Source: Candidatus Uhrbacteria bacterium
Lineage (GTDB): Bacteria; Patescibacteriota; Patescibacteriia; JACPHY01
NCBI GenBank assembly: GCA_016188355.1
Contig: JACPHY010000003.1
Location: 8,170-72,169, forward strand
Length of the DNA: 64,000 bases
Direction of reading: 5' to 3'
Under the pieces are notes generated by a model that was not told the origin of the DNA, did not search any database, and saw only the letters and a list, made by a program, of their open reading frames with translations. A program made the position numbers and the translations under genes. Shown piece after piece: positions 9,927-26,333 of the stretch (position 1 is the first letter of the stretch; each line of letters begins with the position of its first letter).

Positions 9927-10329
9927 CCCACCTCTCCGACTCCGCAGCGCAGTGCCTCGCCATGCAACGTTCCGCGCCGCGACGCTGCGCTCCGCAATGC
10001 AACGGACTGGGATTCACCCTAGTCTCGTCGCCCCGTTCCGAAAACTGCCATCCTCCATGCCATGCGGCGCTCGGTACCGCGTGGCAATGCAGTGCGCCGC
10101 TCCGCAATGATTCGGGACCATCCCGTTGCTTCATCGCTCATGACGGATCGCCCGCGCGGTGCTACGCAGCGCGGTGCAATGCCCCGTGGCGCGTCGCGGT
10201 GCAATGCGCAGCTCATTATTGCAGCGGACCGGGTTACCCCCGGTCCTTTTCTTTTTCTCCAATCGCCACCCATGCTTGACGTCCACGGGATACCGTGGTG
10301 CACTAGGAACGCTGATTATCGAATCTTGT
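9927..10329. repeat. intergenic repeat tract of the same family (GCAATGCAACG-type 12-mers plus hairpins)
   Basis: 'gcagcgcagtgcctcgccatgcaacgttccgcgccgcgacgctgcgctccgcaatgcaacgg', 'gtggcaatgcagtgcgccgctccgcaatg' and 'ggtgctacgcagcgcggtgcaatgccccgtggcgcgtcgcggtgcaatgcgcagc'. Terminal hairpin 10225-10259: GGACCGGG-ttacc-CCCGGTCC + TTTTCTTTTTCTCC. Confidence 0.6.
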
Positions 10330-11811: not shown

Positions 11812-13098
11812 ATGCACCCATCGCGGATCATCCAGCGCACTGCGCTGCTGATCGTCCTGGCCATGATGCTCCCCGTCTCTGCGCTCGCTGCTCCGTGGCA
11901 TGTCGTGATCACCCGCATGACGGAGGAACGCTCCCTCTGGCTCCTCCCCTGCGCGTTCGTGGCGGGCATGGTGAGCGTGGCCACGCCGTGTGTCCTCCCC
12001 ATGCTCCCCATCACGCTCGGCACGCTCGGCGTACGATCGGACACCACGCGACGCATCACCCTGCTCCGCACGCTCGCGTACATCGGCGGCATCCTCGTCA
12101 CGTTCATGGGACTCGGCATGCTCGCGGGCATTGCCGGTAACGCCGTGAGTACCATCTTCACGTATACCTCCGTGCACCTCGTCCTGGCTGCCGTCTTCCT
12201 GATCTTGGCACTGAGTACGTTTGGCGTGTACACGCTCCAGCTGCCGTCCGCGCTCCAGACGCGATGGAGCCGTATCGGCGGCGCGAGCATCTTCGGCGCA
12301 TTTGCCGCCGGAACCGTCGGCGGCCTCCTCGCACTCCCCTGCACCGGTCCGGTCCTCGCCGGCATCCTCGGCGTGATCGGTTCTGCGGGATCCGCGATGT
12401 ACGGCGCGCTCATCCTCGGCTGCTACGCGCTCGGATTCGGCATGCCGTTCCTCGCGCTCGGCATCGGACTCATCCGTATGCCCAAGACGCGCACATGGAC
12501 GCAGCGCACGGAGTACGGCATCGGCGCGCTGCTGCTCATCGGTGCATTCTGGATGCTCCGAAATGCGTTTCCGGATATCGCGACGCCGTTCGCGCACCCG
12601 GCAGCCTTCCTCCCTGCGCTTGGTCTCATTGCCATCGGCAGTGCCACGCTCATCTGGACCGCATCGCTCTCGACATTCGCCGTCGTGCGTGGCGTGGGGG
12701 GCATCACGCTCGGGGGCGTCCTCGTCATGAGTGGACTTGCGGCTCCCACCAACACCGATTGGTGCGAGGAGGGCCGTGATGGTGCGTGCCTTGCGACCGC
12801 GTGCGCCGCCCATCCCATCACCGTGGTGGACGCGCATGCGCCATGGTGCACCTCCTGCCGCACCCTCGAACGCGAGACGCTCGCCGCCCCATCGGTCCAA
12901 CAGGCGATCGGCATCTACGGCCGCGTGCGCATCGATGTGGACGCGCATCCGCAGCACTTCGATCGATTCGCGCCACGCGGATTGCCGGCGATCACCTTCC
13001 TCGATCGCACCTGCACGCCAGTCCACGGCGTCACCGGTCTCATTCCCCCAGCGCAGCTCCTCGATCACCTTCGCCGAGCGGAAATACTCGTGCAATGA
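11812..13098 (+). CDS. thiol:disulfide interchange protein, DsbD/CcdA transmembrane domain fused to C-terminal thioredoxin-like domain
   Basis: 428 aa. Signal peptide, multiple TM helices with paired cysteines ('VATPCVLPMLP', 'ALPCTGPVLAG'), and a C-terminal 'WCTSC' CxxC thioredoxin motif. RBS AAGGAG. Confidence 0.8.
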   Translation: MHPSRIIQRTALLIVLAMMLPVSALAAPWHVVITRMTEERSLWLLPCAFVAGMVSVATPCVLPMLPITLGTLGVRSDTTRRITLLRTLAYIGGILVTFMGLGMLAGIAGNAVSTIFTYTSVHLVLAAVFLILALSTFGVYTLQLPSALQTRWSRIGGASIFGAFAAGTVGGLLALPCTGPVLAGILGVIGSAGSAMYGALILGCYALGFGMPFLALGIGLIRMPKTRTWTQRTEYGIGALLLIGAFWMLRNAFPDIATPFAHPAAFLPALGLIAIGSATLIWTASLSTFAVVRGVGGITLGGVLVMSGLAAPTNTDWCEEGRDGACLATACAAHPITVVDAHAPWCTSCRTLERETLAAPSVQQAIGIYGRVRIDVDAHPQHFDRFAPRGLPAITFLDRTCTPVHGVTGLIPPAQLLDHLRRAEILVQ

Positions 13099-13110
13099 TG
13101 GGAGCATGGT

Positions 13111-13434
13111 ATGCGCATCTACGCGATTCTCCTCACCCCTGACGCCATGACGGGTTTCCGCCAATTCGCGGAAACCGATGGCCACGAACTCGTGCCGTTG
13201 GACGATTGCACCGCATTGCCCTCCGAACTGGCCACAACGGATTGCATCGCCATTCCGATTAGTCTCTTCGTGCCCCTCACCCGCGCGCTCCGATCGCGCC
13301 AGGTACCGACGGAGCTCAATGTCATGGCCGTACTCCCCATGGGCACGGTCGCTAGCAACCGCACGACGGCCGCAGACGGCCTGAGCGTGGTCTACATATC
13401 CGAAGATGATCTTATCCGCCTCCCCTCGCCATAA
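13111..13434 (+). CDS. hypothetical protein (107 aa)
   Basis: Starts 13 nt after the dsbD-like stop, with GGGAG 8 nt upstream. No recognisable motif. Confidence 0.3.
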   Translation: MRIYAILLTPDAMTGFRQFAETDGHELVPLDDCTALPSELATTDCIAIPISLFVPLTRALRSRQVPTELNVMAVLPMGTVASNRTTAADGLSVVYISEDDLIRLPSP

Positions 13435-13455
13435 CGTGGGGAGGTTTTCGTTGTT

Positions 13456-14352
13456 ATGTCCCATTCCCCAGAACGCACGCAGGAATCCGCAGCGGAGGCA
13501 TCACCATCGCGCGCGAAAGAAACCATCTTTACTGCGGAGCGCGCGGAACACGATGTCTCCTGGGATGAATCGCCGGAAGCGGTGTTCCGCGATGCGCTCG
13601 CGCTCCTGGCGCCCGAACTCACCCCCGCGCAAACCGATGCGCTGACGCAGGAGCTCTCGCACGAATCTCCGACGCTCGATGCGATCCGCGCGATTGTCCA
13701 CGACGCTGCGCTCGCGCGTCGGATCGGAAAATGCAGCGATCAGTACCTGGGACGGCCGGTGCTGGTACATGGCATCTGGGAACAGCTGCGGTATGGGGCC
13801 ACCACATCCGGCATGACGGACACCGGACTCGGCCTCCGGCGCGCGCTCGCATGGCAGAGCGCGAACACCCACCGCACCGATCTCCGGGTGACGTATCCCG
13901 CATCCGGAGCGGATGCGACCGGATTCCTCGATCACCTCACGGGTGCACCGATTGCCCACCTCGACTGCGTCACCGCTGGCGGTCCTCAAGGCGCCGATCG
14001 CAAAGCAGCATCCCAAGACATTGATACGACGCTCGTCAAAAGCACGATCCAGCAAGCACTCGAGCAGCAACGCATCGCTCCCGCGGATTGCGTGGTCCTC
14101 GACAGCTCCGGATTCGGCGTGCTCATGGATCTCGCCGATCCCACGGTGCTCGCGGGGGCGCTCGATCGTCTCGTGGTGCCGGGTGGTATCCTCGTCACCA
14201 CTTCGGGGTATCTGGGTGCGGGAAGGGAATCCGTTAAACACGTACTCACGCAACTTCCGCCGGAACGCTACCGATACGTGGGACACCAGGGCGGTAACGT
14301 CTTCATCGTGGAACGCACGCGCACTACATCGGATGCGACCACATCCACCTGA
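13456..14352 (+). CDS. hypothetical protein (298 aa)
   Basis: RBS 'GGGGAGG' upstream, non-repetitive composition, fits between neighbours. Family not recognised. Confidence 0.5.
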   Translation: MSHSPERTQESAAEASPSRAKETIFTAERAEHDVSWDESPEAVFRDALALLAPELTPAQTDALTQELSHESPTLDAIRAIVHDAALARRIGKCSDQYLGRPVLVHGIWEQLRYGATTSGMTDTGLGLRRALAWQSANTHRTDLRVTYPASGADATGFLDHLTGAPIAHLDCVTAGGPQGADRKAASQDIDTTLVKSTIQQALEQQRIAPADCVVLDSSGFGVLMDLADPTVLAGALDRLVVPGGILVTTSGYLGAGRESVKHVLTQLPPERYRYVGHQGGNVFIVERTRTTSDATTST

Positions 14353-14357
14353 TCGCT

Positions 14358-15206
14358 ATGCCCATCGGCGCGCACGTATCCATTGCGGGGGGAATAGTTC
14401 ATGCGCCCGCGAACGCGGCAGCGCAAGGATGTGAGTGCTTCCAGATGTTCACCCGATCCCCTCAAGGCGGCGCGGCACCTCCGCTCACCGAGACGGTTGT
14501 GGCCGCATTCCGCGCCGCATGCGATGCACACCAGCAATCGCTCTGGGTCGTGCACACGCCGTACTACATCAATCTCGCCTCCGCGGAAGAACGCATTCGG
14601 AGCTCCTCCACGCGAGTCATCCGCGAAGAACTCGAACGCGCGTCGTGCATCGGTGCACAGTACGTCATGGCGCATCTCGGTTCTGCACGTGACGTGGGCG
14701 AGGCAGCGGGACGTGCACTCGTGGTGGCTGGACTCACGAAGGCGCTCGATGGATACACCGGATCCGCCACCTTCTGCATCGAAATTGCTGCTGGTGCGGG
14801 AGCAGTCATGGGCGATACGTTTGAAGAAATCGCAGAGCTCATTGCGGGCGTGGAACGAAACATCCATCGCAACGGCATGATCGGCGTCTGTTTCGATACG
14901 CAGCATGCCTTCGGTGCAGGATATGATATCCGTACGGTGGATGCCGTTGCAGCGACCGTCGCGGCACTGGACGCCACCATCGGTCGCGAGCGCCTCCGTA
15001 TGTCCCACATCAACGACTCCAAGGTGGAACTCGGTGCACAGAAAGATCGCCACGAGCATATTGGGAAAGGGCACATTGGTATCGACGGCATTCGCGCCGT
15101 CGTGCAGCACCCCGCATTCCGCGGCCTCCCCCTCATCCTCGAAACCGAAGACGAGGGACGCGAAGCGGATGTGCAACTCCTCAAATCATTCCGCAATCAC
15201 CCGTAA
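14358..15206 (+). CDS. nfo: endonuclease IV (AP endonuclease, xylose-isomerase-like TIM barrel)
   Basis: 'VHTPYYINLAS', 'CFDTQHAFGAGYD' and 'HINDSK...KDRHEHIGKGHIG' match Nfo metal-binding motifs. Confidence 0.9.
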   Translation: MPIGAHVSIAGGIVHAPANAAAQGCECFQMFTRSPQGGAAPPLTETVVAAFRAACDAHQQSLWVVHTPYYINLASAEERIRSSSTRVIREELERASCIGAQYVMAHLGSARDVGEAAGRALVVAGLTKALDGYTGSATFCIEIAAGAGAVMGDTFEEIAELIAGVERNIHRNGMIGVCFDTQHAFGAGYDIRTVDAVAATVAALDATIGRERLRMSHINDSKVELGAQKDRHEHIGKGHIGIDGIRAVVQHPAFRGLPLILETEDEGREADVQLLKSFRNHP

Positions 15207-16885: not shown

Positions 16886-17047
16886 ATGCGCCTTCTCTTC
16901 TCGCTCGTGCTGGTGAGCGGTCTTTGGTTGCTTATCTCGCCGTTTGTGTTGAGCTATCTCGGCGTGGGGCGCGCGAATGCGCTCCTCGTGGGGCTGATCG
17001 TGACTATCCTGGGAGTCATGGGGGTGGCTGGAACCACTGGGAAATAG
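16886..17047 (+). CDS. small hydrophobic membrane protein (53 aa)
   Basis: 'MRLLFSLVLVSGLWLLISPFVLSYLGVGRANALLVGLIVTILGVMGVAGTTGK', two predicted TM helices, immediately after trxB. No RBS check possible beyond the gap. Confidence 0.3.
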   Translation: MRLLFSLVLVSGLWLLISPFVLSYLGVGRANALLVGLIVTILGVMGVAGTTGK

Positions 17048-17149
17048 AGGATTGGGGCTCCTCCATCGGATGGACGTTCAGCCAGTTCTTGATCCGTGAC
17101 AATCACGCATCTCGGAAAATACTTGCCGACTGGCAGTAATTTTGGACAC

Positions 17150-17177
17150 AAAGATTAGCTCCACTGAGCTAATCTTT
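17150..17177. promoter_or_regulatory. perfect 12-bp palindrome AAAGATTAGCTC-cact-GAGCTAATCTTT in an AT-rich spacer (operator- or terminator-like)
   Basis: Seen directly in the sequence. Followed by 'gtttgc'. Lies at the left boundary of the small-ORF island. Confidence 0.5.
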
Positions 17178-17188
17178 GTTTGCATGTC

Positions 17189-17226
17189 TTGACAGAAATG
17201 ACAATCAATGCTAGTCTATAAATATA
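17189..17226 (+). promoter_or_regulatory. AT-rich promoter-like region (TTGACA ... TAGTCT/TATAAAT)
   Basis: 'cTTGACAgaaatgacaatcaatgcTAGTCTATAAATatac'. A -35 consensus with either a 17-nt spacer to weak TAGTCT or a 22-nt spacer to TATAAAT. Only strongly AT-rich block in the vicinity. Confidence 0.35.
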
Positions 17227-17392
17227 CCCTGTTTCAGGATTACTACTTCCCAATCGCAATCTCGTCAGACACAGCGCAACGGCCATCCTTCATTCGAGGT
17301 ATCGAAAATGGATGTCGACGCGCTGACACGAGAGAGGCTCGCGCGGGCCTGTAATGAATCCTGAACACCCGCCATTCCGTTCACCAACGGAC

Positions 17393-17433
17393 CCGAGCTC
17401 TCTCCTTTCTGGAGGGGGCTCGGTTTGTTTGTG
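17393..17433 (+). terminator. strong rho-independent terminator (13-bp stem CCGAGCTCTCTCC/GGAGGGGGCTCGG, loop tttct, tail TTTGTTTGTG)
   Basis: Hand-folded: all 13 positions pair (two G-U). The U-rich tail follows immediately. Confidence 0.6.
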
Positions 17434-17510
17434 CCTTCCACTCGAGCGACGGAGTCCCCAGTGGATTCCGGTGCTCAAGTGGGGGTCACACGCGCAGTCG
17501 AGTGAGCACC
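17434..17510 (+). repeat. family-A element, copy 0 (divergent)
   Basis: 'tCCACtCGAGCGAcGGAGtCCCcAGTGGaTTCCgGTGCTCAaGtGGG' aligns at about 80% to the consensus of copies 1-3. Followed 30-40 nt later by GGAGGG + ATG of the next ORF. Confidence 0.5.
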
Positions 17511-17540
17511 CTGTCACCGGAAGGCATGGAGGGAAACGAG

Positions 17541-17969
17541 ATGCCGCAGCGATCGAAGCAGTACAACGGAAACGGGCTCGCGGCGAGCCTGCAGCACGAT
17601 CTCATCACGAGAAAGAGCAGGATGGGGGAAATCCCGGACGAGGCATGGGCCGACAAGGGACCGGAGGGGCAGGGCGACTTCGATCCTGATCTCACCGTCA
17701 CGCCGGACCCGACGATCGAAGAGGACCTGCTCGACCAGGCGCCCGAGAACTGGTTCCAGCATCAGCGAAGGATGCGCCTGCTCGGCGAGGACAGCATCGA
17801 TCCGGACTCGATCCCGGACATGAGTCTCAACCCCGAGACGATCCTCATCGCGTGTGAGGAGGAGACCGAGGAGAGCACCGCGCTCGCCGCCGAGGCCACG
17901 ACGGCCTGGCGCGCCACGAAGGAGCGCAGCAGGCGCACGGTCCGCTTCCCCACCAGCGCCGTGGCCTGA
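17541..17969 (+). CDS. hypothetical acidic protein (142 aa), island ORF
   Basis: ORF 17502..17969 with start moved to the ATG at 17541 (GGAGGG 9 nt upstream). Asp/Glu-rich; no motif recognised. Confidence 0.45.
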   Translation: MPQRSKQYNGNGLAASLQHDLITRKSRMGEIPDEAWADKGPEGQGDFDPDLTVTPDPTIEEDLLDQAPENWFQHQRRMRLLGEDSIDPDSIPDMSLNPETILIACEEETEESTALAAEATTAWRATKERSRRTVRFPTSAVA

Positions 17970-18059
17970 GCCACTCGCACCCACCAGCAAGCAAGCACAT
18001 TCATCACAGACGCGTTTGCGACGTGACCTCTGACTCACTCTGCGAAGCACTTCGCAGAG

Positions 18060-18120
18060 GAGGAGTCGGAGGCCCACCCGAGCGATGGAGGCCCAAGTGG
18101 CTTCCAGTGCTCAGGCGGGT
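18060..18120 (+). repeat. family-A element, copy 1
   Basis: 'ggaggcCCACCCGAGCGATGGAGGCCCAAGTGGCTTCCAGTGCTCAGGCGGG'. Internal hairpin GGAGGCC-caagt-GGCUUCC (one G-U). Confidence 0.6.
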
Positions 18121-18152
18121 CACGCAACTTCACTCGAAAAGGAGACCGAGAA

Positions 18153-18455
18153 ATGGCAATGCATGTGATCACCGCACAGGAGAGCAGGATGGAGCCCATC
18201 GTGATCGACGGCGAGACTGTCGTCACCCTGCACCCGGCAAAGGACCGATTTGAGGCGGCGAAGATCGCGCATCAGCGCATTCGGCCGCACAACGGGCAGC
18301 ACTTCAGCTACACCGTGTTTCCGGGCGAGGGCCGCGACCCCGCCCGCAACCTCAGCCGGGAGTACGCGGGACGGGTGACGCACTGCATCATCTCGATGCC
18401 GGAGGCGATCCAGCTCTCCCCCGGCGACCAGGTCGCCCTGGTCCTGTACCCGTAA
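18153..18455 (+). CDS. hypothetical protein (100 aa), island ORF
   Basis: AAGGAG RBS 8 nt upstream of the ATG; 33 nt after family-A copy 1. No motif recognised. Confidence 0.5.
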   Translation: MAMHVITAQESRMEPIVIDGETVVTLHPAKDRFEAAKIAHQRIRPHNGQHFSYTVFPGEGRDPARNLSREYAGRVTHCIISMPEAIQLSPGDQVALVLYP

Positions 18456-18458
18456 CTG

Positions 18459-18528
18459 GTCCCCGACTCCGGTCGGGGCCCCACCCGAGCGATGGAGGCC
18501 CAAGTGGCCTCCAGTGCTCAGGCGGGGA
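18459..18528 (+). repeat. family-A element, copy 2
   Basis: 'ggtCCCCGACtccGGTCGGGGcCCCACCCGAGCGATGGAGGCCCAAGTGGCCTCCAGTGCTCAGGCGGGG'. A 5' hairpin CCCCGAC/GTCGGGG plus a perfect GGAGGCC-caagt-GGCCTCC hairpin. Confidence 0.6.
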
Positions 18529-18917
18529 TGGCCCAAGCACCCCGAACACGGCTACCGCCCACGCGAACCAGAGAGGAGGGTCCGTGCGACTGCGATACCC
18601 TTCTGGGTTTCTCTAACGAATCGGGGCTGAACCCATGCGGTTCAGTACCCAGTCACCCCACCCCCGCCAGAAGAGAGGAGGAGGGTCCGTGCGATCTCAG
18701 TACCCCAGCGGCGAAACGTAAGGCCGCTAAGGACAATCCTCGCTCAGGGAACAACGCTTGCCGCGATCACCAACGGCGAATCCCGACGCGGCCCGTTTCC
18801 TGAGCGCGATCTCCCGCCCCACGCCCCGCCCCATTTCCCCGACGTCATCCCACCGGCACCACGCCGCACACAGGATGATCCCGTCCCTTACGACACACAG
18901 ACGCGCTAGCGACAGCG

Positions 18918-18983
18918 CCCCCGACATCGGTCGGGGGTCCACCCGAGCGCCGGAGGCCCAAGTGGCATCCGGTGCTCAGGCGG
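18918..18983 (+). repeat. family-A element, copy 3
   Basis: 'CCCCCGACatcGGTCGGGGGTCCACCCGAGCGCCGGAGGCCCAAGTGGCATCCGGTGCTCAGGCGG'. The 5' hairpin is conserved through different bases than copy 2. Confidence 0.6.
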
Positions 18984-19024
18984 ATATTTCCTGGATGCAC
19001 CTTATTGAAGAAAGGAGGCCCGCA

Positions 19025-19474
19025 GTGCGCGCAAATGGATTTTGGCAACGTGGCGAATTCCGACTGGTTCGGCTTTCGCGATACGATAACTCCCGCGCCA
19101 TGCGGGAATGGTTCCCGCCCACGGCAGGACGCGGCATTTGGGCCTGGGCGGTGAAACTCTGTGATCTTCCGGAGTTCCACCACATCTATCGCGATCAATC
19201 GCGGCAGATTGTACACCCGAGGCGCGATGCCCGAGCGTGGGCGATCCGATGGACGGAGCTTGACGCCTACGTCTGTGGGCTCTCCGAGCACCATCCGGAG
19301 TGTGCGGAATTTGACCCCTCCCTTCACCACGTCCAAATCGTGGACCGCATGCAACCTTGTTGGTGCGGCTGCGATAGGACGGATGGTCCGTTCCGATACG
19401 TCACGAACTCCTGGGCAATCTACGTCGAAGGACCCATGCGCCGTCGACGCTGCCTCCCCACGCACCACCCCTAA
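19025..19474 (+). CDS. hypothetical Cys/Trp/His-rich protein (~149 aa), island ORF
   Basis: GTG start 9 nt after GAAAGGAGG, about 40 nt after family-A copy 3. '...HHPECAEFDPSLHHVQIVDRMQPCWCGCDRTDGPFRY...'. The upstream part of track ORF 18758..19474 runs through the repeat and was rejected. Confidence 0.45.
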   Translation: MRANGFWQRGEFRLVRLSRYDNSRAMREWFPPTAGRGIWAWAVKLCDLPEFHHIYRDQSRQIVHPRRDARAWAIRWTELDAYVCGLSEHHPECAEFDPSLHHVQIVDRMQPCWCGCDRTDGPFRYVTNSWAIYVEGPMRRRRCLPTHHP

Positions 19475-19519
19475 TTCACCCTGACTCCCACTTCGCGAAA
19501 TGCTTCGCGGGACAAGTGC

Positions 19520-19593
19520 GGTCGGGGGTCCACCCGAATTTCGGAGGCCGCGCTATGGTGTCGCAAGATGCCATACCTCCGGAATTCAGGCGG
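19520..19593 (+). repeat. family-A element, copy 4 (indel variant)
   Basis: 'GGTCGGGGGTCCACCCGAatttCGGAGGccgcgctatggtgtcgcaagatgccataCCTCCGgaattCAGGCGG'. The central hairpin is replaced by a longer nested hairpin (UAUGGU..GCCAUA). Confidence 0.5.
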
Positions 19594-19630
19594 ATCGTAT
19601 ACGGAACGCACTTTCAAGGAGGAGGACATC

Positions 19631-19783
19631 GTGACGAAAATTGACGTGCAACGAAGGCAGTTCGCAATCCCTTGGCCCAGAAGCACGCTCGGGATCATGG
19701 GCGTTCTGGGCGCACTCGCGCCGTATGTGGCCGCTGCATGCCTCGTCGCATACATCATGTACCGATCCTGCTTAGGTTCGTAG
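19631..19783 (+). CDS. small membrane peptide (50 aa), island ORF
   Basis: GTG 7 nt after AAGGAGGAGG. 'VTKIDVQRRQFAIPWPRSTLGIMGVLGALAPYVAAACLVAYIMYRSCLGS', one TM helix. Confidence 0.4.
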   Translation: MTKIDVQRRQFAIPWPRSTLGIMGVLGALAPYVAAACLVAYIMYRSCLGS

Positions 19784-19799
19784 CAAAAAGGAGCACCTG

Positions 19800-20249
19800 A
19801 TGCGCATCGCACACTTCCTGTTGAACCTCGACATCCCGGACCATCAGCCGACGGCAATCCCAGCATTCCGGATGGACGGCGCGAAGATGCACGCGAACTC
19901 GAGTCCGTACATCGTGTGGCTGCCGGGGAGCGTCGATCAGACGCTGCTCGCGAGCCTCACGATCATCGGAACGCGCCGAGCCGGCGAGCGTGTGCACGTC
20001 GTCCACGCGTCCGGATCTCCGGAGCTCATCGGATCGGGACCTGGGGGGAGCATGGCAACGCAGTTGACCTGCCAACCGGGGAGCGCGTTCTCGATCGTCC
20101 GTGACTACCTCGGCGAGCGACGATGCCAGACTCTGCGCTGGAACAACGACCGCTTCACCAAGGAGCAGGCGCCGCGCGAGCTCATCGACCGCGTGCTCGG
20201 CCCGCCGCCGATGCCCACCAACCCCGCGAGCGCGGAGGCGCGGTCGTGA
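19800..20249 (+). CDS. hypothetical protein (149 aa), island ORF
   Basis: AAAAAGGAG RBS upstream. Stop overlaps the GTG of the next small ORF (GTGA). Confidence 0.5.
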   Translation: MRIAHFLLNLDIPDHQPTAIPAFRMDGAKMHANSSPYIVWLPGSVDQTLLASLTIIGTRRAGERVHVVHASGSPELIGSGPGGSMATQLTCQPGSAFSIVRDYLGERRCQTLRWNNDRFTKEQAPRELIDRVLGPPPMPTNPASAEARS

Positions 20250-20374
20250 AACGCATCATCGGCATCGTCCTCCTGCTCGCGCTCGTCGCGTGTGAGGAGG
20301 GTGGCTGTTTCGATCCGGAGGCGATGAGCGGTAACGACCTCGGGCGCATGAAGCTCGCCGAACGCGCGCAGTAG
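20246..20374 (+). CDS. small putative lipoprotein (42 aa)
   Basis: 'VKRIIGIVLLLALVACEEGGCFDPEAMSGNDLGRMKLAERAQ'. Signal peptide with an L-V-A-C lipobox. Translationally coupled to the previous ORF. Confidence 0.35.
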   Translation: MKRIIGIVLLLALVACEEGGCFDPEAMSGNDLGRMKLAERAQ

Positions 20375-20570
20375 AGCACCCGAGACATCCAGCGGATCGA
20401 TGCGGAGCTCAATGATCTCCGCAGGCGCATAACCGAGTTCGAAGAGCGCTGCCCCGCGCGCTGATACGATACCTGAGCCTGTCGGTCCGCACCTCGTGCG
20501 GCCGACGGGTCTCCCTTCGTGGAGTCGATCGCAAGATCGAAGATACGAGAAGGAGCGGCGAGATACATGC

Positions 20571-20637
20571 CACTCCTCCGCCCACCCGGATTTCCGAGGA
20601 CGCGCCTTCATTCCTCACGGAGTGATTGCCTCGGAAT
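20571..20637 (+). repeat. family-B element, copy 1 (about 67-nt imperfect palindrome)
   Basis: 'CCACCCGGATTTCCGAGGacgcgccttcattcctcacggagtgattgCCTCGGAATTCCAGGCGGG'. The arms are imperfect reverse complements; the central 30 nt is conserved with copy 2. Confidence 0.55.
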
Positions 20638-20710
20638 TCCAGGCGGGCGTGAACGGATTGTGTGCGGTGGAGCACCGATCGCGAGTCACTCCCGGTTTGC
20701 GGAGGGGAAG

Positions 20711-20977
20711 ATGGTCAACGTCCATGTTCGTTCACTCGAAATCCTGCCGACGGAGGAAGAGCACGCCGCCATGCAGGCCTTTCGAGAAATCTGCGGGGGT
20801 CCGGACACGCCGGAAACCCTGCTGTTGCTCGCGGAAAGCGCGCAACTCTTGCAGAAACCGTTCTATCGGGTCACGCAGAACGCCGAGGGACTGCGCGCGG
20901 CTGCGGCGCGCAGCATACTCGAGCGCATGGCACACAACCGCGGCGTCGGCCTGGGTGCCCTGATCCAGTCGGCGTAG
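20711..20977 (+). CDS. hypothetical protein (88 aa), island ORF
   Basis: GGAGGGGAAG-ATG. 'MVNVHVRSLEILPTEEEHAAMQAFREICGGPDTPETLLLLAESAQ...'. Upstream in-frame extension rejected because it crosses the repeat. Confidence 0.45.
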   Translation: MVNVHVRSLEILPTEEEHAAMQAFREICGGPDTPETLLLLAESAQLLQKPFYRVTQNAEGLRAAAARSILERMAHNRGVGLGALIQSA

Positions 20978-21132
20978 CCGAATGCCCTGATCCCGACCCC
21001 GTAAGGTCGGGATCCCACCAGAGCAGCAGAGACATCCCATTTCTGCCGTTCCGGTGGAAGGACCACATCTGTGGTCGCATCCCATCGCGCATTCGTTTCA
21101 TCGATCACAACAACAGTAGGAGGAGGACGTCG

Positions 21133-21708
21133 ATGCACACTGCGCAGCGACAGTACACATCGGATCTCGATCCGGAGGTGCTCGACCAGATCGCCAGTGC
21201 ACTCGAGCCAGCAGGAGATCCAATTCCGAAACTCCAGGACGACGGCTACGGCGATCCGTACTGCGACAGCGAGCCCGAGAAGGAACTACGACGCCATCAA
21301 CAGGAGTGGGAAGACTTCTATGGTCGCTTCGGGTGGGACGGAAATCGCCCGCTCATCAATGTCGCGCACAATGTCGTGTACGATCACGGGCCGTGGGAGA
21401 TCGATTTGCGCATGCGCTTCGCGCTTGACGCATACCAGACCATCGGACGTCGACTCGCGGAATTCGAGACAGCACCACCACGCGCAAGCACAGCGCGATC
21501 AGTGATCGTGGAGACTGGCCGTACGCCACGCGGCCTCCACGAATGCCGCAAGGGCGCGCACAAACGATGGCGCCGCGCACGAAGCGAGGGTGGCCGCCGC
21601 CTGCCCCGTGCGCCGCTCCAGCTGCGACGCCGCGGTGGCACGCAGGATGACATCTTCGGTATGTGGTGGGATCAAGAGAGCGGTTGGCAGCCGATCTTTA
21701 AGAAGTAG
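21133..21708 (+). CDS. hypothetical protein (191 aa), island ORF
   Basis: AGGAGGAGG 7 nt before the ATG. The N-terminal 100 aa are acidic and non-repetitive; the C-terminal tail is Arg-rich, so the true stop may be earlier (possible frameshift). Confidence 0.4.
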   Translation: MHTAQRQYTSDLDPEVLDQIASALEPAGDPIPKLQDDGYGDPYCDSEPEKELRRHQQEWEDFYGRFGWDGNRPLINVAHNVVYDHGPWEIDLRMRFALDAYQTIGRRLAEFETAPPRASTARSVIVETGRTPRGLHECRKGAHKRWRRARSEGGRRLPRAPLQLRRRGGTQDDIFGMWWDQESGWQPIFKK

Positions 21709-21761
21709 CTCAGTGTAACGATATCTTCGGGGGAGCACGTGCACGATCTTCGCGCGTGCTC

Positions 21762-21808
21762 CGTCCACCCGGATTCCGAACTCTTCCCCCGTTCGGCATC
21801 CAGGTGGA
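21762..21808 (+). repeat. family-B-related palindrome (CCACCCGGATTCCGAAC-tcttccccc-GTTCGGCATCCAGGTGG)
   Basis: 17-bp imperfect inverted repeat sharing the 'GTCCACCCGGATT' start with family B. Its right arm supplies the GGAGGTGA RBS of ORF 21817. Confidence 0.45.
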
Positions 21809-21816
21809 GGTGATCC

Positions 21817-22236
21817 ATGAAGCTCCTTGCTCTGGTTCTCGGTACACTCGCCGCGTTTGCGGCGTGGTGGCTGCTCATGAGCCGCGATGACGTCATCGTG
21901 GCGTCGTACGCGGCACTCGTGTCCACGGCGAGTGCAACAATGGCATTCGCGCTCATCACGCGTTCGCACGTGCCGAAAATCCGCATTCCCATTGAAATCA
22001 CGGCCATCATGGGACTCGCGATCGGTCTCATCACCGAAGGTGCTGCGTTCGCCATCACGGGATACTCGGACTTCAGTGTACTCGCCATCATCGTCGGCGC
22101 GATCGCGTGCGGCGTGATCCTCGATCAACTCCTCACCATTGCCCATCGCGCCGGATACGAATCCGCAGAGCCGGGCCGCCACGAGTCCGAGCGGAAGACA
22201 ATCGAAGAGCAGCTGCCCGAATGGCCGCCGGAATAG
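21817..22236 (+). CDS. membrane protein (139 aa, 4 predicted TM helices), island ORF
   Basis: GGAGGTGATCC-ATG. Hydrophobic segments 'LLALVLGTLAAFAAWWLL', 'IMGLAIGLITEGAAFAI' and 'VLAIIVGAIACGVIL'. Confidence 0.5.
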   Translation: MKLLALVLGTLAAFAAWWLLMSRDDVIVASYAALVSTASATMAFALITRSHVPKIRIPIEITAIMGLAIGLITEGAAFAITGYSDFSVLAIIVGAIACGVILDQLLTIAHRAGYESAEPGRHESERKTIEEQLPEWPPE

Positions 22237-22359
22237 ACGGAAATCGTCGGTAGCGATCCCTGCATCTGGAATCCCCGGACCCGACGGCACCCGCTGTCGG
22301 ATCCTCCCTCGGGCGATGGAGTCTTCGGATTCCATCTTCCGAGAAGAGGAGTACCTTCC

Positions 22360-23277
22360 ATGCGCATCATGCTGATTGCGACGCTCAGCGGTTGCATTGC
22401 CTGTGCAACCACACGAGGGACTTCCGAACGCGAACTCCAGGCGGTTCGCAATGCGACAAACGGAGACACCTATCGCGGCACGATTCCCGCGCTGCACGCG
22501 CTCTTCGACGCACTCGAAAAGGACGATGCCCCACAGATCCTCCAGGCGCTCACCGCGATGCGTTTCGGGGCGGCCACAGCGGCGGCAGTGCAGTGTCCTC
22601 CCACGGAGCTGAAGGAGAGCATCCGTATCTCCGCGATACCGGGTCCCCGCGCGATGATCGTGCGCGCATCGGTTATCTGCGTCATCGGCCCATACACGAA
22701 CGCAACGCTCCATTACGGGGAAGAGAGCCGTGCCTTCGATTCGGTGCAATTCCCAGAAGATCCCGATGCGACGCTTTCGCCTTCCCAGCTCCGCACGCAG
22801 TACGAAGATCTCCTGATTGCGGATGCTGCCGCGTGGGGGAATTCCGGACTCCGTATCCCTACGGAGTTCGCTACCAACATCGTATTGCTCCTCGCGAACT
22901 ACCAGGAAGCACTTGAGGGGAAACGCACGATCATGGTCGAACCCAGCACATCTGGGTTCGACATCCGTACAGAACACCACTTCCGTTTCCGTCTCACCCG
23001 CGCGAAAGTCATCCCAACCCTGGAAGCGCTCGGGAAGCTGGCGGATGACTACCACGATGCGAATGGCGTCGCGACTCCATGGGAGGTCATGCGACTCACG
23101 GAGGATGCGCCATACCTCCTCGCGGTCGCATTCGATCTCTTCCCTGACTCCCGCGCGCTGCCGCAGCTCGCACAGGATGGAGTCGATTTCGGACGCGCCG
23201 CACTCGTACGGACTGGTCTTGGCAATCTCAAAAACAGCGTCACCAGTGACGCAATACAGATCCCCTCCTTCGAATAG
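22360..23277 (+). CDS. putative lipoprotein (305 aa), island ORF
   Basis: 'MRIMLIATLSGCIACA', a signal peptide with L-S-G-C lipobox. RBS GAGGAG upstream. No family recognised. Confidence 0.5.
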   Translation: MRIMLIATLSGCIACATTRGTSERELQAVRNATNGDTYRGTIPALHALFDALEKDDAPQILQALTAMRFGAATAAAVQCPPTELKESIRISAIPGPRAMIVRASVICVIGPYTNATLHYGEESRAFDSVQFPEDPDATLSPSQLRTQYEDLLIADAAAWGNSGLRIPTEFATNIVLLLANYQEALEGKRTIMVEPSTSGFDIRTEHHFRFRLTRAKVIPTLEALGKLADDYHDANGVATPWEVMRLTEDAPYLLAVAFDLFPDSRALPQLAQDGVDFGRAALVRTGLGNLKNSVTSDAIQIPSFE

Positions 23278-23337
23278 TTCTCACCACAGAGGACGCGTAT
23301 AGCCACCCCCTTCCGCGGGGCAGGAAGCGCGTCCTCC

Positions 23338-23405
23338 GTCCACCTGGATTTCCGGGACCGCGCCTTCACCTCGCAAGAGATGATTGCCCGGAAGTCCGGG
23401 TGGAC
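23338..23405 (+). repeat. family-B element, copy 2
   Basis: 'CCACCTGGATTTCCGGGaccgcgccttcacctcgcaagagatgattgCCCGGAAGTCCGGGTGG'. The arms match 15 of 17 as reverse complements; about 80% identical to copy 1. Confidence 0.55.
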
Positions 23406-23470
23406 GCGCTCCGTCCGTTGCAGCGCATCCCGCACATTTCCATCACAATACGCCACAAGGAGGGCGGATA

Positions 23471-23740
23471 ATGCCCATTTCCATCACGACGCGAGAAGCC
23501 ATCTGCATCATCGATAGCACGAAGCGAAGAGAGGATCCGTGCGCTCACGTGGAGCTCGCCCCTGGCCGCTACGAACTCGAGGAAATACAGAATCCATACG
23601 GCTTCGATGCTCCATGGTTCGTGCTCAAGGGCACGAAACGAGGGATGGCACGAAAAGCGTGGATGGACGAAGGAGCATTCGAGGGTCTCACCGAGGCGGA
23701 GATCGATGCCATCCGCAATCGACCCGAGCGCTCGGCCTGA
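23471..23740 (+). CDS. hypothetical protein (89 aa), island ORF
   Basis: CAAGGAGGGCGGATA-ATG, about 65 nt after family-B copy 2. 'MPISITTREAICIIDSTKRREDPCAHVELAPGRYELEEIQNPYGFDAPWFVLKG...'. Confidence 0.45.
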   Translation: MPISITTREAICIIDSTKRREDPCAHVELAPGRYELEEIQNPYGFDAPWFVLKGTKRGMARKAWMDEGAFEGLTEAEIDAIRNRPERSA

Positions 23741-23760
23741 AGAAAGAGGGAGAACACCCC

Positions 23761-24177
23761 ATGCAAATTTCCTGCTTCATGATCGACTTCAAGGATCCGA
23801 CCAAGATCATCCGACTTCCGTTCGGTAGTGTGGGGGAGCGATGGGCCACCTTCCATGATGATGGGCCTGGTGCCGCGCAACTCTCACACATCCCCGATCC
23901 CGCTCCTGCCCACGCGTTCATCGTGGCGCACTTCTCGCTCATCAACAGCGGGGAGACGGTGACCATCGATCTCATGGGTCCTGGTCACCATCTCTACGGA
24001 TCTGCGCTCGACCATGCGGCTGCGGCAAAGCCATTCACGCTCCTCCTCAACGCACGAACGCACGCCGAATTCACCTTCCGCGTGCAAAACAAGCACTGCA
24101 CCTGGATCCTCCGCTGGGACGGCTGCGAGCTGAGCAGCGTGCCGAAGCATGGCAACGATTTCCATATGCCCCACTGA
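23761..24177 (+). CDS. hypothetical protein (138 aa), island ORF
   Basis: AGGGAG RBS. 'MQISCFMIDFKDPTKIIRLPFGSVGERWATFHDDGPGAAQLSHIPDP...'. The upstream part of the track ORF overlaps the previous gene. Confidence 0.45.
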   Translation: MQISCFMIDFKDPTKIIRLPFGSVGERWATFHDDGPGAAQLSHIPDPAPAHAFIVAHFSLINSGETVTIDLMGPGHHLYGSALDHAAAAKPFTLLLNARTHAEFTFRVQNKHCTWILRWDGCELSSVPKHGNDFHMPH

Positions 24178-24201
24178 GCATCGGCTGGAGCGGAGAGACA
24201 C

Positions 24202-24483
24202 GTGAACGTCTTCGGATGGCTCATGTCCCTCTACCTGGCCGCAGCGTTGACACGGAGCACCTACCTCTCGATCGTTGCCGCACACCATGTGTACGACGCA
24301 CGCGCGGAAGCAGCAACGGTCCCGATGGCGGTGCGCGAAATCGCGAATGCGGCCGTCCGCAGCGCCGAGAAACAAGCATATGTCGCGGGATGCGACTTGC
24401 TCATGTGGTGCTTCTGCGGCGCATTCCTTATTCTGGTCATCCTACCGACGATCCCCGAACACCGAAAGGAGTCCCATCCATGA
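24202..24483 (+). CDS. small membrane protein (93 aa), island ORF
   Basis: GTG start after GGAGCGGAGAGA. Two hydrophobic segments. Stop overlaps the next start (ATGA). Confidence 0.4.
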   Translation: MNVFGWLMSLYLAAALTRSTYLSIVAAHHVYDARAEAATVPMAVREIANAAVRSAEKQAYVAGCDLLMWCFCGAFLILVILPTIPEHRKESHP

Positions 24484-24836
24484 GACCGTTCATCTTCGCC
24501 TGGACCTTCGGCCGCGAGCAGGCGAGGGATCCGGATGCGGCGACGCTCGCGCTCGCATGGGCAGCCATGGAATGCGGAGCGACCCGAGAGGCGGCCGCAC
24601 TCGAATTCATCCACCTCGGATGGAGCATCGCGGCCGCGACGCGCATCGCGAAGGCGGCAGAGGCAGAGCTCCGGCGAGAGCGCATCTCGTACGTCGTCGG
24701 ACTTATCCGCGAGGCACTCGCGGATAAGTCCGACGACCACGCCATCCGCGCGCTCCTCACCACCGAGCGGTGGATGCGGCCGCAGGAGCTCGATGCACTC
24801 ATCGCCGACCTCCGTGCGGCAGCACTCGTTGCATGA
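24480..24836 (+). CDS. hypothetical protein (118 aa), island ORF
   Basis: AAAGGAG RBS, ATGA coupling to the previous ORF. Followed by a terminator. Confidence 0.45.
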   Translation: MRPFIFAWTFGREQARDPDAATLALAWAAMECGATREAAALEFIHLGWSIAAATRIAKAAEAELRRERISYVVGLIREALADKSDDHAIRALLTTERWMRPQELDALIADLRAAALVA

Positions 24837-24852
24837 TCATAGATATTCCCGG

Positions 24853-24890
24853 CCCGGAGCTGCCCTCGCAGCTTCGGGTCTTTCGTTTTC
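24853..24890 (+). terminator. rho-independent terminator (CCCGGAGCTGC-cctc-GCAGCTTCGGG + TCTTTCGTTTTC)
   Basis: 11-bp stem (one G-U) plus U-rich tail, directly after the stop at 24836. Near-duplicate of the terminator at 26297. Confidence 0.6.
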
Positions 24891-25327
24891 ATGTGCGCAG
24901 GCGGAATCTGCTCACCCGAACGAACGGAAGAACGCACACCACACGCGGTTACACGGATATTTCGGATGCATTCCTGCCCGATGCTCCACAGGCACTTCAT
25001 CTCTTTAGAACTCTCACCCGAAACATTTCATCGTGTAACGTAGTATCTACTATTGTGACGGTATATATGGAAGGTCCAATAGGCACGGGTGGACGATGGC
25101 GGCTGCGCTGAACGGATAGTGGGAACGTCGTTTGCCGGAGCCAGAACGAAGTAATGCCTCCCTCAAAGAAGCCATCGTCCACCCATGTCTGCACCCCATC
25201 GCGCTGAGCGCGACGGGGTGCAATGTTGCGCCAAAACAACACGGAGGATGTTTGCGATCGCATTGACACGCTCGCATGCTGGTGATAGGACAAAGGTGTA
25301 GCTCGTTCCTTTTCCTGGAGGTGCATC

Positions 25328-26275
25328 GTGGAAGTCGAAGTACGCATGGATCCGCAGCGGCCGCCAATGTCGCTCGAGGAATTCCGCCGAATCGCACCGC
25401 CGCACGCGGTCGGCATCGATGGGTGCGTAGACGCTGGCCCGTGGCGGGATTTCGGATCTACCGGACCGCGCTACGTGTGGAATCATCATTCGCACGTCGA
25501 TCGCCTCGCCACGCGCGCCACCTGCATGCAGGCGCTCCTCGAACTGCGCTGTGGCGATCTCGACGAGATCCTGCGCGGATCCACCGGCCGACCATTCGCG
25601 ATCGTCTTCGCCGATGACTGCGACGCCGATGCGTCGAGTACCATCGTCATCCTGCGGCGATCGGAACTGTTCGCCCATCCCGTGAACCCGCTCGCCAATC
25701 GCTTCGTCGGAGCGGAAGATCTCATGGATACCTTCGCAGGCGCATACCCGTACCCGTGCGACCTCGAACTACTCGAGGAACTCGCATGGATTTTTCAGCC
25801 CTACGACGATTTCCGGCAGGAGGGCGGACTCGAACGGAAGATCGCGGCGGAGTACCTCCGCGTCGTTGATCTGATCGAGGCGAACATCGTACAGTACCTC
25901 GTCGGACGCGGGAAACGTCGAAAACTCGACCTCCGGTACGACGTACTTCAGACCGGCAACGGATGGACGATGGTGCGCGAACACGGCGCGCAGGCGCGGA
26001 CGAAAATGCGCGACGACGGTATCCGGGTGTTCGTTTCGGTGCATGAACGCACCTCCGGCACACGCGACGTTCGCATTGGGAAAATGCACCTCCATGCGCG
26101 CGGCGATCTCATCGCGATTTGCAACGATCTCAATGCACGCGAAGGGGTCGCGGCCGATCGCTGGGGCGGCGGAACGAACATCATCGGCAGCCCGAAGGTC
26201 GCCGGCACTAAACTCGACGATCGCACGATCATGGAGGTGCTCAACCACCATCTCGGCTTGCCGCTCGCCGCATGA
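25328..26275 (+). CDS. hypothetical protein (315 aa), last large ORF of the island
   Basis: GTG start 6 nt after GGAGGTG. Non-repetitive sequence. Followed by a terminator. No family recognised. Confidence 0.5.
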   Translation: MEVEVRMDPQRPPMSLEEFRRIAPPHAVGIDGCVDAGPWRDFGSTGPRYVWNHHSHVDRLATRATCMQALLELRCGDLDEILRGSTGRPFAIVFADDCDADASSTIVILRRSELFAHPVNPLANRFVGAEDLMDTFAGAYPYPCDLELLEELAWIFQPYDDFRQEGGLERKIAAEYLRVVDLIEANIVQYLVGRGKRRKLDLRYDVLQTGNGWTMVREHGAQARTKMRDDGIRVFVSVHERTSGTRDVRIGKMHLHARGDLIAICNDLNAREGVAADRWGGGTNIIGSPKVAGTKLDDRTIMEVLNHHLGLPLAA

Positions 26276-26296
26276 GGTAAACGGCATACGCACTCC

Positions 26297-26333
26297 GGCC
26301 CGAAGCTGCCCCCGCAGCTTCGGGCCTTTCTGT
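26297..26333 (+). terminator. rho-independent terminator (GGCCCGAAGCTGC-cccc-GCAGCTTCGGGCC + TTTCTGT)
   Basis: 13-bp perfect stem, 22 nt after the stop at 26275. The stem core is identical to the terminator at 24853. Confidence 0.6.

Follow-up and report, generated by a model that had tools for sequence, protein, structure and literature searches.

Hairpins mark the space between cistrons in several kinds of transcript: repetitive extragenic palindromic (REP) sequences and bacterial interspersed mosaic elements (BIMEs) act as stabilizers in Escherichia coli operons, RNase III sites lie between the early genes of phage T7, and tRNAs punctuate mitochondrial RNA. Here we describe imperfect palindromes that stand between the small genes of an array in Candidatus Uhrbacteria, a member of the candidate phyla radiation (CPR). 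The array lies in a 64-kb segment of the chromosome (contig JACPHY010000003.1, positions 8,170 to 72,169; NCBI locus tag HYV74_01500), which lies near oriC and is called the window throughout. An original prediction, made from the letters of this DNA, had singled out two long palindromes and a shorter relative and likened them to attC, the recombination site of integrons. We find that these palindromes make up one subtype within a family of intercistronic modules that is specific to the lineage and occupies a hypervariable array of ORFan genes in a clade of Uhrbacteria. They are a new finding, absent from the literature that we searched, in which no paper joined attC sites or integrons to these CPR elements.

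As with the intercistronic hairpins of messenger RNA, the Uhrbacteria elements form stable stems of 16-22 bp between putative cistrons, in the sense orientation, and in one relative a tRNA occupies the equivalent slot. REPs differ in being dispersed genome-wide and in having a GTAG head, and the conserved base of the Uhrbacteria hairpin, hereafter the clamp, shows a far stricter conservation than RNase III sites are known to have.

Sites of the attC type are defined by an AAC/GTT triplet within RYYYAAC/GTTRRRY cores at the hairpin base, by extrahelical bases on one arm near L'' and by a central spacer in which 5-6 nt per arm stay unpaired, over a length of 57-141 bp (PMC5027507). Like the integron arrays that carry them, whether sedentary chromosomal or, when no integrase is nearby, of the kind termed CALINs, the Uhrbacteria locus contains co-oriented, small, apparently promoterless ORFan genes behind one promoter, with a single imperfect palindrome per junction that combines conserved inverted ends with a variable interior. 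In both, the sites of one array resemble each other and the gene sets differ between related genomes. Unlike integrons, the Uhrbacteria loci have neither IntI nor attI, and the array starts instead at a candidate regulatory leader beside trxB; the copies are mostly 38-65 nt long, below or at the low end of the attC range; the palindrome is embedded in a larger module that includes a second hairpin, a conserved box and a ribosome-binding site (RBS); and the junctions do not fall at one position.

Two phage systems offer further parallels. Promoter early stem-loops (PeSLs) are mobile regulatory cassettes, composed of a sigma70 promoter and a terminator stem-loop, in the hyperplastic regions of T4-type phages (PMC2839356, PMC4122927). 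There, too, a conserved stem-loop regulatory motif flanks small ORFans in a hypervariable region, and recombination between the repeated motifs explains insertions, deletions and replacements among close relatives without a dedicated recombinase. In contrast, the Uhrbacteria module has no promoter or T tract, its genes are apparently transcribed from one upstream promoter, and its host is a bacterial chromosome and not a phage. In Cluster K mycobacteriophages, start-associated sequences and their extended form (SAS/ESAS) consist of a box at the gene start and an upstream inverted repeat, with a proposed function in translation initiation (PMC3203893). The likeness lies in a conserved asymmetric box near the translation starts of unrelated genes, in a single orientation. 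However, the RBS is part of the SAS, at a distance of 3-8 bp from the start, whereas in Uhrbacteria the box and the RBS are distinct and the box stands 15-45 nt upstream of the start; there is no relation in sequence between the two systems, and the SAS repeats are scattered over the phage genome.

Results

The palindromes belong to one family of modules

The full repeat unit begins with a GC-rich hairpin (H1), followed after 1-2 nt by the clamp hairpin (H2) and, 3-20 nt further on, by a CA-rich box, an RBS and the start codon of the next open reading frame (ORF). Scans of the window for the clamp pattern, with spacers of N20-50 and N50-80, resolve to eight distinct sites, all intergenic, all in the orientation of the ORFs and restricted to 6 kb (17438-23403) of the 64 kb. 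A covariance model built from ten long copies matches only these eight sites in the window (E 6e-18 to 3e-3), and all of them share the clamp CCACCCGAG...CTCAGGCGG round a variable hairpin. Families A and B, under which the original prediction had filed the palindromes, are therefore subtypes of one family that is defined by the 9-bp clamp and the variable hairpin. The kinship between A and B that had been proposed from a shared start is borne out by the pattern CCACYYG-N20-50-CRRGYGG, which gives 10 matches against 1.04 expected, a number reached by 0 of 100 shuffles. The modules of the window are as follows, with the means of detection in brackets.

17438-17482, + strand, A-type clamp hairpin H2, the first after the leader terminator (pattern scan, fold, covariance model)
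18038-18059, + strand, upstream hairpin in the H1 position before element 18074 (read from the sequence)
18074-18118, + strand, A-type H2, then the box-like CGCAACTTCACTC (18123-18135), an RBS and ATG 18153 (repeat family D1, pattern, covariance model)
18461-18478, + strand, H1 hairpin CCCCGAC-TCCG-GTCGGGG (repeat families D1 and D6)
18481-18525, + strand, A-type H2 (pattern, fold, covariance model)
18918-18937, + strand, H1 hairpin CCCCCGAC-ATCG-GTCGGGGG (module catalogue)
18939-18983, + strand, A-type H2, then the box GCACCTTATTGAA (18997-19009), an RBS and GTG 19025 (pattern, fold, covariance model)
19520-19616, + strand, module H5, with the 3' half of H1 at 19520-19529, a long H2 at 19530-19593 whose inner hairpin carries a GCAA loop, and the box CGCACTTTCA at 19607-19616 (pattern, fold)
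20582-20646, + strand, B-type H2 (copy 1), with the center GCGCCTTC-hairpin-GATTGCC and a hairpin upstream at 20481-20506 (covariance model, 82.9 bits)
21732-21762, + strand, upstream hairpin in the H1 position before element 21765 (sequence, coordinates)
21765-21807, + strand, short H2 whose 3' end overlaps the RBS of ORF 21817-22236 (covariance model, 26.9 bits)
23289-23336, + strand, upstream hairpin in the H1 position before element 23340 (sequence, coordinates)
23340-23403, + strand, B-type H2 (copy 2), with a GCAA tetraloop on its central hairpin (covariance model, 81.8 bits)

Both long copies that had been predicted are real. The second is confirmed with its coordinates refined to 23340-23403, while the interval first given to copy 1, 20571-20637, started 11 nt too early and ended 9 nt short of the right arm; the element lies at 20582-20646, and its stem reaches 20578-20650. 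The two are 81% identical (55 of 68 aligned columns), in agreement with the earlier estimate of about 80%, and the repeat finder gives 77% over 57 nt (family D12). Their arms and conserved center (GCGCCTTC...GATTGCC) match the earlier description. The A-type copies of the window are 80-88% identical. It also holds that the short relative supplies the RBS of the following gene: the GGAGG of 21806-21810 shares two bases with the 3' end of the element, and the ATG follows at 21817.

The search for further copies drew on two sets of related loci. Three of these (L009, L010 and L013) are the true matches of a scan of JGI metagenomes with the A-type pattern, and seven (L015, L016, L019, L020, L021, L022 and L028) are syntenic Uhrbacteria loci reached through homologues of TrxB (63-84% identity, the 84% being that of L015). 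Altogether about 36 copies were found, in the arrays of the window, L009, L010/L016, L015, L019, L020, L021, L028 and L013, one per intergenic gap, and all co-oriented with the small ORFan genes of their array. One of them, at 545-591 of L013 (Ga0102924_1131557), has its own interior and lies 3' of a reductase-like ORF on a 1.2-kb contig without recognizable synteny; it may be a fragment of an array from another lineage or a non-array copy. No clamp element occurs in about 115 kb of flanking DNA, and the 56 kb of the window outside the array contain none. A role as a DNA uptake sequence is rejected, the 9-mers CCACCCGAG and CTCAGGCGG occurring only in the array. A scan of GTDB species representatives with the B-type pattern yielded no relatives, only three matches by chance that lie within coding sequence, and the source genome is apparently outside that collection.

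The hairpin is under selection

In every H2 the stem base is conserved, with constant 9-bp arms, and the interior of 38-88 nt ranges from simple hairpins to branched forms of 88 nt. Its position relative to the stop codon, the box, the RBS and the start codon is regular. H1 typically has the form CCCCGAC-loop-GTCGGGG and also covaries, and the conserved box (consensus CGCACCTTCAACCC), 15-45 nt 5' of the start codon, is presumed to be single-stranded. The B-type center, CCGCGCCTTC-GTTC-GCAA-GAAT-GATTGCC, is kept in five further genomes while its arms covary, and in four arrays (L009, L010, L019 and L028) a B-type copy is the first element directly after the leader terminator. A GCAA loop, which on the sense strand is a GNRA tetraloop, caps the central hairpin in seven of nine long copies.

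Both strands of the elements fold far better than shuffled sequence (RNA z -3.5 to -6.3), and DNA folds give the like result. In an RNAalifold analysis of nine long copies, compensatory double changes are found in 14 of the 22 predicted pairs, and in an alignment of the clamp from 35 copies 10 of 13 pairs have changed on both sides. The clamp scores 0.386 for covariation, where shuffles give 0.204 and none of 500 is as high, and no slid register comes close. The compensatory changes, together with covariation above that of shuffles, mean that the hairpin itself, beyond its sequence, is under selection. Orthologous elements of the window and L015 differ in a compensatory manner or are conserved above the neighboring coding DNA: the differences between element 18481-18525 and its orthologue at 12023-12067 of L015 are compensatory changes, and element 18939-18983 is identical to 12483-12527 of that locus.

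Intercistronic RNA elements are recognized by their sense orientation, by a stem with compensatory changes and by a constant placement with respect to the stop codon, the RBS and the start codon, and all of these are found here. In the variable inner stems, G.U wobbles number 39 on the sense strand and 10 on the antisense strand, counts that are not phylogenetically independent. This bias, and the larger module reminiscent of a 5' untranslated region (UTR) with its upstream hairpin, box and RBS, suggest a role in RNA. At the gathering threshold Rfam detects only tRNAs in the window and eight related loci, and a scan of 17000-25400 at E<=1 returned miRNA noise only; known RNA families, including self-cleaving ribozymes, are rejected for want of a match. 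The two 9-bp half-sites, inverted and conserved across genomes, could also be taken for double-stranded DNA operators, each bound by a dimeric regulator of its cassette. We consider this highly improbable, as the spacing of the half-sites varies from 20 to 70 bp, each interior is self-complementary, unique and covarying, as a hairpin would need but a dimer site would not, and there are no adjoining promoters to regulate.

Promoter, leader and probable transcription unit

The layout in which the modules stand is common to six or seven related Uhrbacteria. In relatives the order runs from trxB through a small SPW-type membrane ORF, a terminator, a promoter and a leader into the array, and an array start flanked by trxB, the SPW-type ORF and the leader is seen in the window, L009, L010/L016, L015, L019, L022 and L028. 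In the window, the array lies between a small membrane ORF that follows trxB (16887-17047) and rpiB, with these features:

17189-17217, + strand, sigma70-type promoter of the array, TTGACA and TAGTCT with a 17-nt spacer and an upstream TG, at a position conserved in relatives
17225-17433, + strand, structured leader RNA that ends in an intrinsic terminator at 17393-17433 (terminator scan)
17541-24836, + strand, array of 14 small co-oriented ORFs of 42-305 aa, with a GC content at third codon positions of 0.67-0.88
24851-24889, + strand, intrinsic terminator that closes the array, a 13-bp stem followed by TTTCGTTTT (terminator scan)

A simple consensus scan missed the promoter because of its weak -10 hexamer; CTTGACA-N17-TAnnnT stands at the equivalent place in the window, L015, L009, L010, L019, L020, L021, L022 and L028. 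Promoter and leader together span 17189-17433 in the window and, in the relatives:

L009, 454-640
L010, 2575-2775
L015, 11212-11445
L019, 7597-7790
L020, 12196-12625
L021, 11327-11665
L022, 11763-11970
L028, 5264-5455

The leaders are 150-400 nt long across the relatives, and each has its own intrinsic terminator. In the window, GAGAGAGGCTCG (17330-17341) is complementary to the 5' arm of the leader terminator and is a candidate antiterminator. The same complementarity, between a GGAGAGAG motif and the terminator 5' arm CTCTCTCC, recurs in all nine leaders examined; the motif takes the form GGAGAGAG(C/G)C, with a second tandem copy in L021 and L022. This arrangement has the look of a classic alternative between antiterminator and terminator, which makes the leader a candidate riboswitch or attenuator of the array. 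It has no Rfam match, and its reading as a coding ORF is rejected, for indels between L009 and L010 break the frame.

Between the leader and 24851, the scan found no sigma70-like promoter, and the only + strand terminator called from 17433 to 24851 is a weak 5-bp stem at 24408. The simplest reading, given this lack of an internal promoter and this single weak terminator-like site, is one transcript of about 7.4 kb that would be read through conditionally, with hairpins 3' of each cistron and a box and RBS 5' of the next. A promoter within the module is rejected, as the distance from H2 to the box varies from 3 to 20 nt and there is no sigma70 match.

Stable GC-rich hairpins 3' of stop codons, with fold z-scores of -3.5 to -6.3 on both strands, invite comparison with ordinary bidirectional rho-independent terminators, the explanation that the original prediction had named as its own refutation. 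We give it virtually no credence, and the sequence already refutes it: H2 has no T tract on either strand, and the scan calls none of the H2 elements yet finds three genuine, strong terminators, at the leader (17393-17423), the array end (24851) and 26297, each with a T tract. Nor do terminators have such a clamp sequence, a box downstream or one common orientation.

The terminator hairpins at 24851-24880 and 26297-26326 are 82% similar. Between these two terminators lie an AT-rich stretch, a hairpin-rich non-coding region (25087-25222) and an ORF of 315 aa (25328-26275) that has no Pfam, NCBIfam or PADLOC match. The whole stretch, 24851-26326, may be a separate unit inserted at the distal end of the array.

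Comparison with attC sites

The term attC-like is true of the layout of these elements, and not of family membership. The part of it that stands is the arrangement of differing gene sets between the same elements, and likewise the variable terminal structure, for length varies in the interior only and the stem base is conserved. The diagnostic features are lacking. Of 35 distinct copies, a single one has an AAC in the left 16 nt together with a GTT in the right 16 nt; every copy has the ends CCACCYG...CRGGYGG. Folding the strands separately, as RNA and as DNA, reveals extrahelical bases on neither, and no unpaired central spacer of 5-6 nt. The palindromes had been described as bulged, which is inaccurate: the arms contain symmetric 1x1 mismatches only, and the B-type has an asymmetric internal loop round a small central hairpin, with no one-sided bulge. 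No Phage_integrase or other recombinase domain was detected by Pfam among the roughly 60 ORFs of the window, nor beside the related arrays, and tblastn with a XerD query gave nothing at E<0.02 in the window and eight related loci. A canonical attC identity is accordingly rejected on core triplet, extrahelical bases, central spacer and integrase.

Cassette turnover between relatives

The 14 ORFs of the array have no Pfam, PHROG or PADLOC match, and the one of 305 aa has no homologue except itself among 5.8 billion proteins. Several have an N-terminus that looks like a signal peptide, a lipoprotein signal or a transmembrane segment. The island matches nothing by blastn among 50,697 phage records and 72,556 plasmid records, and a phage or plasmid origin is rejected on the lack of blastn, PHROG and PADLOC matches; four pattern scans of IMG/VR gave nothing, or two non-palindromic chance matches.

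Comparison of the relatives shows that cassettes turn over at the modules. Relative to L015, the window has one additional unit (element 18074 with ORF 18153-18455), and L015 has three that the window lacks (13031-14811), bounded by modules. The 97-nt H5 module is 93% identical to 14812-14906 of L015, while the ORFs on both sides are unrelated. A non-coding segment (GCCGTTGCCCGACA...) is present in L009, L010 and L019 next to different neighbors; its left junction falls immediately past the box, and on the right the homology extends through H1 into the left arm of H2. Compared with L019, L009 has an additional ORF, module and tRNA-Ala. This tRNA-Ala(UGC), which lies at 2405-2479 inside the array and has the G3.U70 identity pair, exactly fills the gap from H2 to the box: its first two bases overlap the last two of the H2 clamp, and the CA-rich box comes next. 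The slot is where a processing site would be. Breakpoints thus far seen fall at, inside or beside modules (the H1 loop, the H2 interior, after the box) and at no fixed nucleotide, and H2 variants are linked neither to the upstream nor to the downstream ORF.

Contigs of the same population from four sequencing runs (SRR12113385, SRR12113419, SRR12113422 and SRR12113428) are 100% identical to the window, and none of these assembled contigs has an alternative array junction. Among the relatives, five of the six contigs that reach the array end within it (L009, L015, L016, L019 and L020), those of L021 and L022 end just past the leader, and only the contig of the window crosses the array. Such ends are consistent with a collapse of the assembly at the repeated modules, with heterogeneity among strains, or with the two together.

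Some of these data would also suit selfish mobile palindromes without host function, similar to miniature inverted-repeat transposable elements (MITEs) or REP/REPINs and mobilized in trans. The elements are imperfect palindromes with conserved termini and near-identical sub-families (A-type, 80-88%); before the orthologous first ORF an element is present in the window (17438-17482) and reduced to a degenerate trace in L015; one element is nested in another; and one copy is on the L013 contig that lacks recognizable synteny. We nevertheless deem this explanation very unlikely. All of the roughly 36 copies have one orientation and are confined to arrays, and both the other 56 kb of the window and the flanking DNA of the relatives lack them; the head is CCAC and not GTAG or CGTC; the window contains no RAYT or transposase gene; target-site duplications or flanking direct repeats are not seen in 34 listed copies; and the regular position relative to stop codon, box, RBS and start, with orthologues conserved above the neighboring coding DNA, is not what selfish elements would display. 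For the window and related loci, REP/RAYT and MITE identities are rejected on distribution, head, orientation and lack of target-site duplication. True REP-like palindromes with a GTAG head (GTAGGGGCGGGG...CCCCGCCC), which have no relation to the clamp elements, do occur beside trxB in Uhrbacteria that are more distant, at 10997 and 11135 of L021 and at about 10957 (minus strand) of L020; there are none in the window, L015 or L019.

Other cassettes and neighboring sequences

Further observations concern the contents of the arrays. An apparently non-coding segment of about 300-450 nt (GCCGTTGCCCGACAAGAAAAGGCGAGAGCCG...) is found at 1497-1949 of L009, 4452-4759 of L010 and 8652-8977 of L019, with different neighbors, and may be a non-coding RNA cassette. 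At 2999-3424 of L010 (equal to 12838-13263 of L016) a cassette encodes an STIV_B116-like protein (PF08960/DUF1874), a family that includes the viral ring nuclease AcrIII-1; this hints at cassettes with accessory functions in defense or anti-defense. Between elements 18481 and 18939 of the window, in a region conserved in L015, two near-identical units (18573-18616 and 18678-18721) each contain the RBS GAGGAGGG, a GTG start and a mini-ORF of 10 codons (MRLRYPSGFL and MRSQYPSGET). The L020 array holds a tRNA-like 3' fragment (GGGTTCGATTCCCGCCGGTGCCACCA) at about 13560-13600, which is not called as a tRNA, and a different repeated 5'-UTR motif (ACCCGCCCCGGGGTGAAGGGG) before its ORFs.

Outside the array, housekeeping genes occur throughout the window (H+-PPase, DsbD, endonuclease IV, trxB, rpiB, rpe, fba, PBP1A and polA), with dnaA at 47680-49104, dnaN at 51100-52224 and a turn in the GC skew at about 51 kb. 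Between trxB and the leader, where the window has no additional genes, extra genes are present at 1126-1488 and 2096-2503 of L010, about 7100-7520 of L019 and 3858-4208 of L028. These comprise a 23S-rRNA-IVP-family gene in L010 and L028, the L010 copy being flanked by AT-rich repeats, and a VapC-like PIN toxin unit in L010, with matching sequence in the corresponding part of L019. Short degenerate repeats of the form GCAnCGCA or CATCCGTG (families D2-D5, D15 and D16), unrelated to the clamp elements, fill long intergenic stretches at 4330-5890, 7640-8040 and 9930-10300 of the window, 914-1010 of L015, 7795-7860 of L019 and 120-160 of L010.

Discussion

The interpretation that we favor, tentatively and at somewhat less than even confidence, is that the modules would act as intercistronic RNA punctuation and as translation modules of a leader-controlled polycistronic array, and would also be the repeats on which cassette turnover depends. 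Our preference comes from their orientation and regular position, the box and RBS, the GNRA loop, the sense-strand wobbles of the inner stems, the tRNA slot and the apparent single transcription unit. The array would be transcribed from its one conserved promoter through the leader, whose terminator could be overridden by the alternative pairing, and the lack of detected internal promoters and terminators would make the product a long polycistronic RNA. In this RNA, H1 and H2 would fold as punctuation, forming barriers at 3' ends or processing sites that insulate each cistron, and would stand just 5' of the single-stranded box and RBS that set up translation of the next ORF. Finally, with eight to ten modules per array, the repeats would supply both homology and hairpin fragility for cassettes to be deleted, inserted and swapped. 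A dedicated integrase would then be unnecessary, homologous or hairpin-provoked recombination being enough, as in the analogous PeSL cassettes of T4-type phages.

Several points weigh against this interpretation. Two positions of the clamp are mostly A.C or C.A on the sense strand (in 16 and 25 of 35 copies), mismatches that become G.T wobbles on the antisense strand, so that the clamp is fully pairable on the bottom strand only; an RNA helix accounts for this less well than does a folded single-stranded DNA site or a strand bias in mutation. The conservation of the clamp sequence goes far past what a hairpin needs and points to a sequence-specific protein partner. In L010 and L019 a long H2 that is not self-complementary has the same left half, while its right half diverges together with the downstream gene, and in L019 one B element is nested in another, the leader-proximal one; breakpoints of this kind inside H2 look like DNA-level activity at the hairpin. 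Moreover, polycistronic transcription, processing and an effect on translation are all things that we infer from sequence.

The wobbles are not decisive for the strand, because those of the clamp favor the bottom strand, by 38 to 3, and those of the inner stems favor the top. In the window, the bottom strand is the lagging-strand template. A mutation bias of the replication strands could explain the clamp pattern, as the L020 array, which lies on the other side of dnaA, has the reverse clamp wobble.

The same evidence bears on a second explanation, possible although unlikely in our judgment, in which the H2 clamp hairpins would be the site-specific recombination sites of an integron-like platform. 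A putative recombinase encoded elsewhere in the genome would recognize the CCACCCGAG/CTCAGGCGG clamp, possibly on the folded bottom strand, and excise and insert ORFan cassettes behind the fixed promoter and leader. The co-oriented, apparently promoterless array with its one promoter at a fixed chromosomal locus in six or seven genomes would suit such a platform, and the conserved stem base with its variable interior would correspond to R boxes and a variable terminal structure. The high similarity among copies of one array recalls sedentary chromosomal integrons, and between relatives the content and order of cassettes differ, and the junctions fall at H2, within it or directly behind the box. 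A clamp that is strictly conserved in sequence and entirely pairable on the lagging-strand template would suit it as well, as would the nested B element of L019 and the constant first place of the B-type after four leaders, an attI-like position. However, neither the 64-kb window nor the DNA beside any array contains a recombinase of a known family, the elements lack the canonical attC features, the junctions are not fixed, and H2 variants are linked to neither flanking ORF. A recombination site would have no need of the additional conserved 5'-UTR parts, the sense-strand wobble bias of the inner stems is not accounted for, and the population contigs from four runs are identical to the window without an alternative junction.

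In its fullest form this would be a gene-capture platform that evolved independently in Uhrbacteria, with a fixed promoter, a riboswitch-like leader, cassettes of ORFans, tRNA and non-coding sequence, a putative recombinase acting on a clamp hairpin that is not attC, and the leader-proximal B-type as primary insertion site, a proposal that we regard as rather doubtful. A function of the modules in RNA and site-specific recombination at H2 are not mutually exclusive, as attC sites show.

CPR bacteria have tiny genomes and an episymbiont lifestyle, and to our knowledge few mechanisms have been described by which they diversify their gene content. The palindromes are a variation on the theme of the cassette array in a CPR lineage, larger than first noted: at a clade-wide locus of Uhrbacteria, small secreted, membrane and ORFan genes turn over fast behind one regulated promoter, each framed by the same module. 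The leader is a candidate for a new riboswitch or attenuator. If the modules provide only RNA punctuation and homology for recombination, the locus would be a chromosomal counterpart of the PeSL-type shuffling of phages and the modules a new family of cis-regulatory RNA. If instead a dedicated recombinase acts on them, the integron principle would have been invented a second time, independently, and the modules would provide new structure-specific recombination sites.

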